From an uncultured bacterium (GTDB taxonomy: Bacteria; Patescibacteriota; Minisyncoccia; Moranbacterales; UBA2206): a stretch of 64,000 bases of DNA. The stretch is from contig CAIKZD010000007.1 in the NCBI GenBank assembly GCA_903831805.1, positions 7,886 to 71,885 on the forward strand. The letters run 5' to 3'. Shown here in pieces: positions 686-27,555 of the stretch. The notes beneath the pieces were generated by a model. It did no database searches, was not told the origin of the DNA, and worked only from the letters and a program-made list of their open reading frames with translations. The position numbers and the translations under genes were made by a program. Each line of letters starts with the position of its first letter. Position 1 is the first letter of the stretch.

Positions 686-725
686 CAAGGTTCAACCTTA
701 GGCATAGCCTAAGGTTGAACCTTGG
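686..725. repeat. Perfect palindrome, family A (AAGGTTCAACCTTAGGC-ata-GCCTAAGGTTGAACCTT)
   Basis: The two arms are exact reverse complements. Related copies lie at 2626..2673 and 23565..23614. Confidence 0.8.
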
Positions 726-988
726 TCCTAGAAGTCCTATGTTGCTTAAAAATTAAAAAAGATTTTGCGAAGCCGGAATTTTTATTTAGATCTCGATATA
801 TCCATCGGGACAAATGAGAAGCGAGCTCAGAATCGTTGCGGTTCCGCCTGCTTGATAACGCAGGGTTTATAAAAGCATATTTGGTAAAAATAAAATATCG
901 AATATGCGCCTTGATTTAGAGCATTTAGTTATTTCGGACTATACTGAACTTCGGTTCGGATTGGTCCGGTTATGGAAAAATGGCGGAA

Positions 989-1143
989 TATACCAGCAGG
1001 TAATAACTTTTGGTCGTCTACTACGAACTCCAATGATACCCACAACGGCTGGAACGTCAACTTGAACAACGGCAACACGAACAACAATAATAAGACTAAT
1101 ACCAACAAAGTCAGGTGTGTTCGCTAGCCTTTTGGCAACTATT
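989..1143 (+). repeat. DGR1 template repeat (TR1)
   Basis: Adenine-rich copy of VR1 with many AAC codons. It is non-coding and sits between avd and the RT gene. Confidence 0.8.
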
Positions 1144-1163
1144 CGCCAGTAATACTGGCTTCG

Positions 1164-2258
1164 CTAAGTCTTTTTTAACGGTAATTTTTTTATGCGAAAA
1201 GAATAATAGTTAAGATCAACCGGATCAAGATATGACCTTATTATCCCAAAGTGTCTGATGTAAACCGATTTCCTGAGGCGCCATGTATCGGCATGGCGAA
1301 ACTGCCCGTAATAGGAATTAATGACGGCAAGAATTGTTTTGAGATAATTTTCAAAACTTTCCGGCGAATCAGGGATAGGGGATTCTCCAAATTGACTGAG
1401 TTTCTTCTTCAGATTGTTGACGATCCTTCGGCGAACAAGCGAATGACCGGGTTTGAGAATGAAACCGACAAAATTGATGCCTTTGGCGATAGGTTGCTGA
1501 ACAGACTTTTTAGGATGCAGTTTCAATTTCAATTCGCGTGCCAAAAATTGATCAATCTGTTTTTTCCAAACGGAAAGATATCTCGGGTTTTCATGGATCA
1601 ATATGAAATCGTCGACATAGCGCAGATAATATTTGACTTTCAAATCATGTTTGATGAATTGGTCGAGCGCATTGAGATAGATGTTGGCGAAAAATTGAGA
1701 AGTCAGATTGCCGATAGCAAGTCCTTGGTCTCGAGGTACTTTAAACAGAGACTTGTTTGATGGAATGAGCTTTGCAAGAGCCGGATTGCCTTTGCGATAG
1801 AAATTTTCCGTTGGATCGTGAAAAATGATTTTTTCTGTCAGCCACAAGATTTCCGGATTTTTTACCTGCTTTTTAATGAGAGCGAAGAGAATATCTTTTT
1901 TTAGCGACATAAAAAAAGCGGCGATATCGACTTGGAGGTAGTATGCCGGACGAGAGAAATTTTCAGTTGAGGTGCGCAGGATTTTTTTAAGATATTTTAT
2001 GGCATCATGAGTTCCTTTACATTTCCGGCAGGCGAAAGAATGGTAGATGAATTTTTTTTCGAAAATCGGTTGGAGATAATCAACCAGCAGGTGATGGACG
2101 ATTCTATCCCGAAAATCAGCCGCGAAAATTTCCCTCGGTTTAGGATTGGTAACGACAAAGCAAATGGATTGCCCAGGATGATAAGTGCGATTCTGCAGTT
2201 CTTTCTCCAATTTCAAAAGCTCATGTTCAAAATTTAGTTCCGTCTTGGCGGCGTTCAC
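1164..2258 (-). CDS. DGR reverse transcriptase
   Basis: RT motifs are present, including YLRYVDDF (YxDD). Motif 4 is IGNLTSQFFANIYLN, with the SQ that distinguishes DGR RTs from the QG of group II intron RTs. GTG start confirmed by reverse-complementing 2256..2258. Confidence 0.85.
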   Translation of the reverse strand: MNAAKTELNFEHELLKLEKELQNRTYHPGQSICFVVTNPKPREIFAADFRDRIVHHLLVDYLQPIFEKKFIYHSFACRKCKGTHDAIKYLKKILRTSTENFSRPAYYLQVDIAAFFMSLKKDILFALIKKQVKNPEILWLTEKIIFHDPTENFYRKGNPALAKLIPSNKSLFKVPRDQGLAIGNLTSQFFANIYLNALDQFIKHDLKVKYYLRYVDDFILIHENPRYLSVWKKQIDQFLARELKLKLHPKKSVQQPIAKGINFVGFILKPGHSLVRRRIVNNLKKKLSQFGESPIPDSPESFENYLKTILAVINSYYGQFRHADTWRLRKSVYIRHFGIIRSYLDPVDLNYYSFRIKKLPLKKT

Positions 2259-2328
2259 AGTTTTTCTTTTTTGTTTTCGGCAATCATGATAGGCGGCTAG
2301 GAGATTCTGAAATGTGAAATGAGTTTTG

Positions 2329-25018: not shown

Positions 25019-25223
25019 TGCAAAAAAATATGCTAAAATAAGCTTGAGCTCAGAGAGTGTTCGTACGCGACACTTTCCTCGTAACAAAACCCGAAGTTCA
25101 GCGCGTTTCCAGGGACGGAGAATAATGAAATTTATGCTAGCGTCCAAACAGAGGCTAAGATAATTGGCTATGAAAAGCGGAGCAATCTTCTTTTTGAAAT
25201 TATGGATGGAAACGGTGCTATAA

Positions 25224-25333
25224 TGCTTCAGTCGCAATCGTCAATTCTGATGACCACGAGTTCAAGCTCAACTCCAACAATGCTGACAACTCCAATGACA
25301 ACAACCGTTTGCGTCTTGCCCTAACACTTCGGG
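25224..25333 (+). repeat. DGR2 template repeat (TR2)
   Basis: Adenine-rich non-coding copy of VR2 (AAC/AAT-rich). Confidence 0.8.
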
Positions 25334-25716
25334 CCTTTTGTCTTTTTGAGCCAACCACCGATTTCTCTCCCGATGGAAACGATAGTTTCCAATTGGGAAG
25401 AATACCACCCAGTGGAAATGAATTTTTTGTCCACGGCCAGCCGCAGAGATTTTTTGAATAAATCAAAATTGGCGCTGGCCAGTGGCAGATAGATCTGGTT
25501 ATGAAGTGAAATCAGGGCAGCTTTATGCGTTTCGTTCAAAAAAAGCAAGATTTCTTTTCCCAAAAAATTTCTATCCATCTTGGGGAAATTTTGCACGCGA
25601 TCATAACAATTTCCGTATAATTTTTCTAATTCAGCAAATAATTTGGGCTGATTATTTTTATGAACGATATTCGTGGTAACGACTTCGCTGGGGGGGGGTC
25701 TTAGCGGGAATGCCAT
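25321..25716 (-). CDS. avd: Avd-like four-helix-bundle protein, paralog 2
   Basis: Same architecture as the 242..640 protein, including the C-terminal GREIGGWLKK versus QVGGWENWAK. It lies between TR2 and RT2. The start is probably an internal Met. Confidence 0.6.
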   Translation of the reverse strand: MAFPLRPPPSEVVTTNIVHKNNQPKLFAELEKLYGNCYDRVQNFPKMDRNFLGKEILLFLNETHKAALISLHNQIYLPLASANFDLFKKSLRLAVDKKFISTGWYSSQLETIVSIGREIGGWLKKTKGPKC

Positions 25717-26731
25717 TTGTCATAATGATATTTTTGAAAAAATTATTTCTTTAGAAAATTTGTTTTCAGCTTGGCAAGAATTTAGCAGGGGAAAGATGAA
25801 AAAGAAGGATGTCTTGGAATTTAAAATAAAATTGGAAGAAAATATTTTCCATCTCCATCAAACACTTAAAAACAAAACCTACCAGCATTCCCATTATACC
25901 GCATTTAACGTATATGACCCAAAACTGAGAAAAATTCATAAGGCCACGGTCATGGATAGAGTTTTGCATCATGCGATTTTTAGGATTTTATATCCACTTT
26001 TTGATCCAAGCTTTATTTGGGACTCCTATTCTTGCAGGATGGGAAAGGGTAGTCACCGAGCAGTCAAAAAATTGGAAAAATTCACAAGAAAAGCAAGTCA
26101 AAATAACAAAAGAAATATCTTTGCTTTGAAATGCGATATAAGAAAGTTTTTTGACTCTATTAACCAAGAAATTTTGCTGGAAATAATCCGAAGAAAAATA
26201 CAAGACAGAGATGCTTTATGGCTGATTGAAAAAATAATCCAAAGTTTCCCGGCAGGTTTGCCGCTGGGAAACGTCACCAGCCAAATTTTTGCCAACATCT
26301 ATTTGAATGAGCTGGATCAATTCGTGAAACATAATCTCAAAGAAAAATATTACCTGCGTTATTGCGATGATTTTATAATCTTGGGCGAAAGTGAAGAATG
26401 GCTGAAAAATATAATTCCAAAGATTGCTTGCTTCTTGCAGGAAAATCTACAGATCACGCTTCACCCGAATAAAATCAGTATCAGAAAATTCAGTCAAGGG
26501 ATAGATTTTTTGGGCTATGTGGTTTTGCCGCATCATAGAGTTTTGCGAACCAAGACCAAAAAAAGAATGATGAAAAAAATATCCCTGAAACAGAAAATGT
26601 ACCAGGAGGGTTTGGTTTCTGAGGAATCGCTCAATCAAAGCGTGCAATCGTATTTGGGAGTGCTGGAGCATTGTGAGGGGTGTGGGGTGGCGAGGGAGAT
26701 GGAAAGGACAATCGACAAGGCTAATGGATAA
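25673..26731 (+). CDS. DGR reverse transcriptase, paralog 2
   Basis: LGNVTSQIFANIYLNELD (SQ motif) and YYLRYCDDF (YxDD). ~55% identical to RT1 by eye. GTG start in the ORF track. A G9 homopolymer lies at 25689..25698. Confidence 0.85.
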   Translation: MVTTSLGGGLSGNAICHNDIFEKIISLENLFSAWQEFSRGKMKKKDVLEFKIKLEENIFHLHQTLKNKTYQHSHYTAFNVYDPKLRKIHKATVMDRVLHHAIFRILYPLFDPSFIWDSYSCRMGKGSHRAVKKLEKFTRKASQNNKRNIFALKCDIRKFFDSINQEILLEIIRRKIQDRDALWLIEKIIQSFPAGLPLGNVTSQIFANIYLNELDQFVKHNLKEKYYLRYCDDFIILGESEEWLKNIIPKIACFLQENLQITLHPNKISIRKFSQGIDFLGYVVLPHHRVLRTKTKKRMMKKISLKQKMYQEGLVSEESLNQSVQSYLGVLEHCEGCGVAREMERTIDKANG

Positions 26732-26880
26732 AATACGGCAGAGTCCTCTTTTTTCACTTCGCTGGCGCGCGTTCAAAAAGAGAGACTCCGCCAAGGGGAG
26801 TGCCGCGGCTCTGTAGGTATATTGCGTAAAAAATCATTGAGTGATAAGATAACAGTATTAAAAACAAAAAACTAAAATAG

Positions 26881-27555
26881 ATGCGGCAGGCCGAATTCGC
26901 TAATGGGGAATATTATCACATCTACAATCGTGGCGTGGATAAGCGCGAGGTGTTTTTGGATGAGGCGGATTATATTAGATTCTTGACCAGTATGCGTGAA
27001 TTCAATAGCATTTTAGATAGGGAAGAAAGACTAAGAAAATTGGAAAAGGAAAAATCGGAGTCCAACTCCGATTCGGAGTTGGACTCCGATTTTTCCGCCT
27101 CCACAGAACAAAAGTTGGTTGAAATTATTTGTTATTGCTTGAATCCGAATCATTACCATTTTATACTGAGGCAATTGCAGAAAAATGGCATCAGTAGATT
27201 TATGCAGAAAGTTGGAACTGGCTATACAAACTATTTTAATAAAAAACAAAATCGTTCCGGTGCACTCTTCCAAGGAAAATTCAAATCCATCCATATCGAC
27301 TCTAATGACTATCTGCTCTATCTGTCAGCCTACGTGAACGCTAATAATTTCATTCATGGATTTAATGAGAAGTTGGAAGATTGGGCATACTCAAGTTATC
27401 TGGACTATGCCGGACAGCGGGCAGGAAAGCTTTCCAAGAAAGAGGTTATATTGGGTCAATTTGATAATAATTTTTCGCAATATGCAAAATATATCAAAGA
27501 TAATGCGCTATACCTGAAGGAAAAAAAGGAAATGGCGAGCTATATTTTGGAATGA
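26881..27555 (+). CDS. REP-associated tyrosine transposase-like protein (IS200/IS605 Y1 HUH family), paralog 2
   Basis: YHIYNRG...YCLNPNHYHFIL...SGALFQGKFKSIHI...AYSSYLDY. ~70% identical to the 2441..3118 protein outside the variable loop. Confidence 0.65.
   Translation: MRQAEFANGEYYHIYNRGVDKREVFLDEADYIRFLTSMREFNSILDREERLRKLEKEKSESNSDSELDSDFSASTEQKLVEIICYCLNPNHYHFILRQLQKNGISRFMQKVGTGYTNYFNKKQNRSGALFQGKFKSIHIDSNDYLLYLSAYVNANNFIHGFNEKLEDWAYSSYLDYAGQRAGKLSKKEVILGQFDNNFSQYAKYIKDNALYLKEKKEMASYILE
27054..27090. repeat. Perfect 37-nt palindrome inside the RAYT2 CDS, related to family B
   Basis: ATCGGAGTCCAACTCCGA-t-TCGGAGTTGGACTCCGAT. It encodes the SESNSDSELDSDF segment, at the same protein position as the family-A palindrome in RAYT1. 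Confidence 0.8.

Follow-up and report, generated by a model that had tools for sequence, protein, structure and literature searches.

The 64,000-nucleotide (64 kb) stretch of DNA considered here, referred to in what follows as the window, belongs to contig CAIKZD010000007.1 of an uncultured bacterium of the Patescibacteria. It contains two genes, RAYT1 and RAYT2, together with a set of long palindromes, one of which is carried in frame inside each of the two genes. The genes encode Y1 HUH proteins, that is, proteins with a single catalytic tyrosine and a histidine–hydrophobe–histidine (HuH) motif, which resemble the REP-associated tyrosine transposases (RAYTs), where REP denotes a repetitive extragenic palindromic sequence. 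Scanning of the window, both by reading of the sequence and by means of an inverted-repeat scan, places the genes and the palindromes, the latter falling into families termed A and B, as follows.

2441..3118, plus strand: RAYT1, a Y1 HUH (IS200-like) protein of 225 aa, Pfam PF01797 (E=1e-8)
26881..27555, plus strand: RAYT2, a paralogous Y1 HUH protein of 224 aa, Pfam PF01797
686-724: family A doublet, arms 18 nt, loop 3; intergenic, with the bAvd gene on one side and the template repeat of the first diversity-generating retroelement (DGR) on the other
2625-2676: family A doublet in the RAYT1 open reading frame (ORF), arms 26 nt, loop 0; encodes residues 62-79 (GFPKVQPWASPRLNLRKP)
3130-3172: family B doublet, arms 19 nt, loop 5; 12 nt past the RAYT1 stop codon, which is the downstream slot described below
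3574-3610: decayed family B doublet, in frame within the beta-helix gene 3194..3994
4022-4066: family B doublet, arms 20 nt, loop 5; intergenic, between the beta-helix gene and gene 4071..5519
23564-23613: family A variant doublet, arms 25 nt, loop 0; intergenic, stem AAGGTC-c-GACCTT
27048-27096: family B-like doublet in the RAYT2 ORF, arms 24 nt, loop 1; stem CGGAG-tccaa-CTCCG

Of these seven palindromes, six are perfect, with arms of 18-26 nt, and one is decayed. An earlier interpretation made from the letters of the window (the sequence-only reading) had placed the copies of both families to within 1-6 nt of the scan results, with the exception of a supposed half copy at 3591..3612, which is actually a full but decayed copy at 3574-3610, such that its start had been set 17 nt too far inside; the right arm of this copy, GGGAGTTGAACTCCC, is intact and the left arm is mutated. 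Family B copies had also been said to flank an ORF at 3122..3994, of which that at 4022-4066 does lie outside, while the upstream one at 3130-3172 lies inside the ORF as started from GTG, ahead of its ATG starts at 3176 and 3194. The RAYT2 palindrome extends to 27041-27103 at 90% complementarity. The copy at 23564-23613, situated ~100 nt past the 5S rRNA gene and ~110 nt ahead of the target gene of the second DGR, reads on the minus strand as PKVRPLDIQRSDL, a peptide that is present in the loop of a homologue (P0003).

The core pattern of family A is matched 6 times in the window against 0.37 expected from dinucleotide shuffles, and that of family B 15 times against 0.08, with A and B copies absent from the other 36 kb of the window. 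When folded as single-stranded DNA, the perfect copies have energies of -21 to -30 kcal/mol (z -9.7 to -11.8), the values being -28.6 kcal/mol (z -9.7) for the in-ORF copy of RAYT1 and -29.8 kcal/mol (z -10.0) for that of RAYT2; the decayed copy reaches a z of merely -2.9. The stems have no T-run directly 3' of them, as an intrinsic terminator would have, and an Rfam scan of the window returned only 23S and 5S rRNA, with no RNA family at the palindromes. Wherever they overlap the window, four independent assemblies match it at 99.9-100% identity and reproduce every palindrome in range exactly, such that the assembly artefact which the sequence-only reading had named as its own possible undoing can be set aside. 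Two of these four assemblies terminate at or beside a palindrome, which suggests that these elements break short-read assemblies; the same-strain contigs L087 and L088 end at or beside B palindromes, at window positions 4003 and 3157, respectively.

Three features go beyond the sequence-only reading, namely a nested doublet design, an in-ORF copy that is found throughout the clade and four recurrent slots per gene. As regards the design, each arm of the palindromes is itself self-complementary (GGGAG-ctcaa-CTCCC or AAGGTT-c-AACCTT), and every element in the window is in other words made up of two inverted copies of a 15-19 nt hairpin, the inner pairing of which is kept by compensatory change in RAYT2 (CGGAG-tccaa-CTCCG) and in the copy at 23564 (AAGGTC-c-GACCTT). 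Among distinct arms of 16 nt or more, 52 of 74 contain an inner stem of at least 5 bp, compared with 3.4% of shuffled arms, in a survey of arms which drew on all of the sequence collected and not on the window alone. The conserved part of the hairpins is the outer stem, CTTGG/CCAAG or CCTAAGG/CCTTRGG. Two inverted hairpins are also the design of the REP doublets forming hairpins (REPINs) of Bertels & Rainey (PMC3116915), and all of the window copies, as doublets of self-complementary arms, share it.

The two proteins are 61% identical. Their HuH motif is H92-Y-H94 in RAYT1, and H92, H94, Y152 and N156 are invariant across a 36-sequence alignment, where Y152 is presumably the nucleophile and N156 a metal ligand, by analogy with Y127 and Q131 of IS608; the proteins are thus Y1 HUH enzymes in both of the expected respects, the HuH motif and the catalytic tyrosine. 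An AlphaFold (AF2) model of RAYT1 has a predicted local distance difference test score (pLDDT) of 86.6, and its sole internal stretch of low pLDDT coincides with the palindrome-encoded residues 62-79, in keeping with the earlier suggestion that the loop tolerates the segment. The top match of a Foldseek search of the PDB is 4er8_A, E. coli TnpA-REP with a REP hairpin (E=2.1e-7, template modelling (TM) score on the target 0.73), and the chains of IS608 and ISDra2 rank below it (E 3.5e-5 or worse, TM 0.53-0.63). The fold is closer to TnpA-REP than to the IS200/IS605 transposases and, together with PF01797 matches above the cut-off in both genes, it bears out the description of the genes as RAYT-like. 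It is the fold search alone that makes this link, as a search of the PDB with a sequence profile of the protein family gave no match and reached no solved RAYT. At E<1e-5 the family numbers at least 2595 protein clusters, which with few exceptions are 215-230 aa in length, and it has 585 matches in species-representative genomes; its named members are Moranbacteria or Parcubacteria, and as regards carriage by phages there is no homologue in IMG/VR.

Hairpins in and around the homologous genes

The comparative set consists of 79 loci, fetched with flanks of up to 10 kb from assemblies of the Patescibacteria, for which another name is the candidate phyla radiation (CPR). A genome-wide census could be approximated only, from these 1.17 Mb of related loci. 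Within RAYT1 and RAYT2, the in-ORF copies are at the same protein position, in the variable loop before the HuH motif, and both keep the frame, as the sequence-only reading had recognised. A perfect arm of at least 8 nt occurs in this pre-HuH loop in 61 of 72 homologous genes, a slot occupancy of ~85% among genes that are 44-72% identical. Moreover, the segment that runs from NRG to HuH has a palindrome score of at least 10 in 54 of 71 genes, a cut-off reached by none of the 71 codon-shuffled versions and by one of 71 equal-length downstream segments. Close relatives have doublets of 38-52 nt in the loop, and distant relatives a single hairpin of ~25 nt with the consensus ACTTGG-N5-loop-N5-CCAAGT, read as 'LGxxxSKL'; the distance from NRG to HuH is ~59-62 aa without a hairpin and 70-76 aa with a doublet. 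The hairpins with a CTTGG-type stem, 24 in number, are all centred in one and the same codon phase, and phase is shared within subclades. No RAYT ORF is interrupted at a hairpin. Translational bypassing is ruled out, the in-ORF copies being without exception in frame and devoid of stop codons.

When 39 single hairpins are aligned, anchored at their centres on perfect stems, 12 of 12 pairs have changed on both sides, and paired cells amount to 84%, as compared with 60% when shuffled and at most 49% with slid partners. A set of 61 hairpins has only four internal mismatches between them, G-T not being in excess of A-C, and the in-ORF hairpins are essentially without the G-U pairs that would be the signature of an RNA structure. 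Since the homologues keep their palindromy through compensatory change, the suspicion that the segment might be ancestral coding sequence, palindromic only by chance, is not upheld. The same architecture is shared by dozens of metagenome-assembled genomes (MAGs) from different projects and assemblers.

The same stem recurs in four slots: upstream of the start, in the pre-HuH loop, in a second loop and at the stop codon. The upstream slot, ~40 nt ahead of the start codon, is occupied in 46 of 67 genes, and the downstream slot, at or just past the stop codon, in 48 of 71. The second loop is that after the catalytic-tyrosine helix and is used in some genes; an in-ORF hairpin 3' of the HuH motif is present in 21 of 72, and one locus (L080) has a third in-ORF site. 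Within a locus the copies resemble one another, a 9-mer being shared between the in-ORF hairpin and the upstream copy in 36 of 43 genes, between the in-ORF hairpin and the downstream copy in 35 of 41, and between the upstream and downstream copies in 28 of 34, as against 5.7% between loci, where hairpin copies differ by compensatory changes. This identity of the in-gene hairpin with those that flank the gene in homologous loci supports the earlier assignment of the palindromes as REP-type hairpins. Paralogues within one MAG carry different hairpins, and a slot may hold another family, as in RAYT1, whose ORF has family A and whose stop has family B, or in L080, where the second in-ORF slot has a different hairpin family.

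Hairpins of the same kind are found in unrelated genes. A scan for the B doublet located it in frame in LigA, the NAD-dependent DNA ligase (loci L083 and L084), where 42 nt encode KLGSSTPTWELSSQ, ~10 residues beyond E. coli LigA at that point; the segment is missing from most of 120 Patescibacteria orthologues. Locus-specific hairpins are likewise in frame in MurB, in GatB (two copies) and in a radical SAM protein, and further in-frame hosts are a methyltransferase and a prepilin peptidase (peptidase A24). In the window, the beta-helix gene has, where its decayed B copy lies, 6-8 residues more than three homologues have. Such lineage-specific, in-frame insertions of the same elements in other genes support the sequence-only reading, according to which the palindromes within RAYT1 and RAYT2 could be either self-targeting REP insertions that the loop tolerates or cis-acting RNA/DNA structures. 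Over the 79 loci, copy density drops from 0.05-0.11 per kb, at a distance of 0.5-2 kb from the enzyme gene, to 0.005 per kb at 7-10 kb; none of the five copies that the window has outside the RAYT genes in its 64 kb is more than 3.4 kb from such a gene. A metagenome scan with the B doublet gave five loci only, none of them a further contig of the source genome. The anatomy of the elements, their conservation and covariation, their concordance within a locus and their in-frame insertion elsewhere are in this way established.

Origin and maintenance of the in-frame copies

The palindromes are probably REP/REPIN elements that have as their cognate enzymes a RAYT-like clade of the CPR; those of them that lie in a RAYT ORF would be kept perfect by turnover at the level of DNA and translated as a passenger loop. 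The system as a whole is most likely of the REP/RAYT type and specific to the Patescibacteria. By analogy with TnpA-REP and with TnpA of IS608, RAYT1 and RAYT2 would bind such hairpins on single-stranded DNA, and would cut and rejoin the DNA at the hairpin feet. The hairpins would settle in recurrent slots around and inside the enzyme gene, the in-ORF copies being translated as a disordered passenger loop at the protein surface. Continuing DNA-level turnover, either by enzyme-mediated replacement at existing hairpin sites or by short-tract gene conversion, would then keep these copies complementary and like their neighbours, and the same elements would occasionally land in frame in the loops of other genes. 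The activity of the enzyme and its part in driving the turnover are inferred from the solved relatives, and the way in which the copies are kept alike and any autoregulatory benefit are likewise conjectural. The in-ORF copies are both perfect and matched to their neighbours and therefore appear to be live members of the hairpin population and not fossils. An origin at the DNA level is favoured by the strict Watson-Crick symmetry, by the zero-base loops and by the identical elements in unrelated genes, and may be compatible with an added regulatory use of the hairpin.

Several observations weigh against this reading. The tetranucleotide GTAG/CGTC at the hairpin foot is absent in families A and B. 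Both RAYT1 and RAYT2 of the window are without an upstream hairpin; RAYT2 has no flanking copy, and the downstream copy of RAYT1 is of another family than its in-ORF copy. The density of copies beyond 2 kb of the enzyme gene is low, at 0.005-0.02 per kb. The covariation alignment, anchored as it is on perfect stems, leans towards structure, a bias from which the codon-shuffle and downstream-segment controls are free. The binding and cutting of the hairpins by RAYT1 and RAYT2 are predicted by analogy, and an occupancy of ~85% despite deep divergence might just as well be due to selection for some function of the in-ORF hairpin.

Such selection would make the hairpins cis-regulatory elements, which in mRNA or DNA restrain or feed back on expression of the enzyme, as targets of RNase III, as a brake on translation or as binding sites for the enzyme itself, and which are retained by selection and not by turnover. 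This explanation, the main rival, seems rather unlikely. In its favour, 61 of 72 genes have the hairpin in the conserved position and the codon phase is fixed, hairpins are found as well at the stop codon and in what is likely the 5' leader, the doublets would give perfect stems of 23-26 bp, and in IS200 hairpins in the leader tightly self-limit the transposase. It is harder to reconcile with perfect Watson-Crick stems that have loops of zero or one base and nearly no G-U pairs, which have the look of DNA-level symmetry, or with the presence of the same elements in unrelated genes and intergenic DNA, where such a role would be senseless; nor would it account for slots that can hold a different hairpin family, or for the lack of any Rfam family match at these sites. 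Passive and recurrent insertion into the sole permissive loop, favoured perhaps by an enzyme that acts beside its own gene and followed by no maintenance, would agree with the lineage-specific in-frame insertions in other genes, with the longer distance from NRG to HuH where a doublet is present and with the drop in copy density away from the gene. Independent events, however, would not hit the same codon phase every time, as is seen for 24 of 24 hairpins with one type of stem, and unmaintained copies would decay as that at 3574-3610 did, yet there are just 4 mismatches in 61 hairpins. Occupancy of ~85% across genes only 44-72% identical points the same way, and a purely passive process is, on account of the fixed phase and the lack of decay, unlikely.

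The position of the palindromes within the window raises the prospect that they are parts of the adjacent DGRs, for instance a hairpin or cruciform that marks the variable region (VR) for retrohoming. In its favour, each RAYT gene has a DGR reverse transcriptase as its immediate neighbour, and of the A copies one is placed between avd and the template repeat (TR) and another upstream of the target gene of the second DGR. No palindrome, however, is situated just 3' of a variable region, that of the first DGR ending at 235 and the nearest palindrome starting at 686, and a reverse transcriptase is found within 10 kb in only 4 of 79 other RAYT loci, most of which have hairpins, such that a role in DGRs is very unlikely indeed. 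Lower still, and close to negligible, is the chance that the palindromes are an assembly artefact or coding sequence that is palindromic by accident. No support for this was found, beyond the contigs of some assemblies that do break at the palindromes and so indicate that these trouble assemblers. The sequence is identical in four independent assemblies, the same architecture recurs in dozens of MAGs from varied projects and assemblers, and the palindrome score is reached by 0 of 71 codon-shuffled controls.

A bolder reading, and an unlikely one, is that the in-ORF hairpin serves as a built-in reference copy of the enzyme's own substrate, which the gene carries in a protein loop. Were this so, enzyme and hairpin could not be parted and would co-evolve as a single unit; the in-ORF hairpin could be the master or donor from which flanking and dispersed copies are renewed, and it could allow the enzyme to sense and limit its own expression. 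In its stronger form, the loop peptide encoded by the hairpin would help to recognise that same hairpin.

REP/REPIN-RAYT pairs are usually viewed as an enzyme gene amid extragenic repeats. Here, a large clade puts the repeat inside the reading frame of the enzyme, at conserved slots and matched to its neighbours, which makes of it a natural setting in which to study the co-evolution of enzyme specificity with hairpin sequence and the means by which repeats stay homogeneous. It also appears that the ultra-small and gene-dense Patescibacteria tolerate in-frame mobile palindromes in the essential genes for LigA, GatB and MurB, a tolerance that parallels that of the Rickettsia palindromic elements. 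The findings have a bearing on the evolution of protein loops and on annotation and assembly breaks in Patescibacteria genomes. Their relevance to REP/RAYT biology and to genome evolution in reduced bacteria is founded on comparative sequence evidence.

Retroelements and other features of the window

A complete DGR is situated at 88-2258. Its variable region, at 88-235, is the 3'-terminal part of a gene that the window edge truncates, and is followed by bAvd (242..640), the template repeat (996-1143) and, on the opposite strand, the reverse transcriptase (1164..2258); all 13 TR/VR mismatches fall on template adenines. The second DGR, at 23721-26731, comprises the target gene (23721..24908, with its VR at 24797-24905), a template repeat at 25224-25333, an Avd-like candidate ORF on the minus strand (25321..25716) and a reverse transcriptase (25673..26731), and most of its TR/VR mismatches are a change from template A to G, the few differences at bases other than A being found at the 3' end. 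Each RAYT-like gene abuts one of the two reverse transcriptases (window 1164-3118 and 25673-27555). The order of the second cassette, with Avd on the minus strand followed by reverse transcriptase and RAYT, is repeated in L029 with a similar in-ORF hairpin. A (CT)n microsatellite, at ~2338-2362, lies in the short spacer between the minus-strand reverse transcriptase and RAYT1.

A further perfect palindrome at 18243-18283 (arms 20 nt, loop 1, core GTAGAGACG) is without an inner hairpin and sits 22 nt past the stop of gene 15581..18220. Similar cores are present in L080 (5468-5498) and in hairpins of L030, and this palindrome may be a member of another hairpin family. In L082, at 7217-8699, three copies of a 26-nt perfect palindrome, GTCCAGTCGCTCGCGAGCGACTGGAC, lie ~300-1100 nt apart in a repetitive region adjoining a very long ORF.

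The 23S rRNA gene (region 18887-23459) spans 4108 nt against a model of 2925 nt and has a LAGLIDADG endonuclease ORF inside it (21342..21848), from which it appears that the gene holds an intron or insertion. The 5S rRNA is downstream of the 23S at 23346-23459, and no tRNA or tmRNA was found in the 64 kb window. Two AT-rich repeats, 8648-8695/20280-20327 (90% identity) and 9066-9119/20344-20397 (74%), have their first members in intergenic sequence near 8.6-9.1 kb and their second members in the 23S rRNA region, and a related AT-rich pair is at 7904-8035 and 19497-19620. An ORF of 1579 aa (9131-13870) has several internal direct repeats of 140-250 nt with 71-80% identity.

Comparison with known systems

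A hairpin or cruciform 3' of DGR variable regions was reportedly found by Guo and co-workers in 2011, and the present palindromes have in common with it that they are G+C-rich inverted repeats within a DGR cassette. Their position is nevertheless wrong, in that no repeat is immediately 3' of VR1 (88-235) or VR2 (24797-24905), the nearest palindromes being those at 686 and 23564, and the repeats are mostly away from DGRs.

The palindromic elements of Rickettsia, reportedly described by Ogata and co-workers in 2000, are said to lie in frame in protein genes, housekeeping genes included, where they are tolerated as surface segments, and to be ~100-150 bp in size, restricted to Rickettsia and without a known dedicated enzyme. 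The in-frame insertions in LigA, MurB and GatB are of the same kind, but size and host lineage differ, as the elements here are of 25-52 nt, belong to Patescibacteria and are linked to a RAYT-like gene.

The IS200/IS605 family (IS608, ISDra2) acts on single-stranded DNA. The RAYT-like proteins share with it the Y1 HUH transposase fold, and in much of the clade a hairpin is placed near each end of the gene, as are the subterminal left- and right-end hairpins of these elements. The gene copies in the window are, however, only 61% identical, such that there is no sign of recent transposition of the gene, and the whole unit does not occur in near-identical copies. Nor was a tnpB partner seen among the ORFs called and scanned beside RAYT1 and RAYT2, where RAYT1 neighbours the DGR reverse transcriptase and the beta-helix protein, and RAYT2 the other reverse transcriptase and an ORF with a weak DUF3426 match. 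Furthermore, the end hairpins are here perfect, match each other and the in-ORF copies, and have also spread on their own.

A full-text literature search, the coverage of which was incomplete and which therefore gives absence of evidence only, returned no paper on REPs inside RAYT ORFs, and none on in-frame palindromic elements in Patescibacteria like those of Rickettsia.

The closest comparators are the REP/REPIN-RAYT systems, namely E. coli TnpA-REP with its REPs and bacterial interspersed mosaic elements (BIMEs) and the REPINs of Pseudomonas fluorescens (Nunvar 2010, Bertels & Rainey 2011, Messing 2012). REPINs have been described as extragenic (PMC5581495), whereas the copies here are inside the enzyme's own ORF, at conserved slots, and in frame elsewhere. 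The units are also very short (15-25 nt) and without the GTAG/CGTC tag, their density away from the gene is low, and sequence profiles reach no solved RAYT. In common with these systems there is a Y1 HUH enzyme, the fold of which is best matched by TnpA-REP, and there are short hairpin repeats, arranged as inverted doublets and, across much of the clade, flanking the enzyme gene, although in the window RAYT1 has just a downstream copy, of another family, and RAYT2 none. The sequence of the hairpin is, moreover, specific to the gene or locus, with several pairs of gene and hairpin per genome. As judged from sequence and predicted structure, the match to REP/REPIN-RAYT systems would rest on fold and doublet design, together with the gene-specific hairpins and, for the clade, the copies on either side of the gene.

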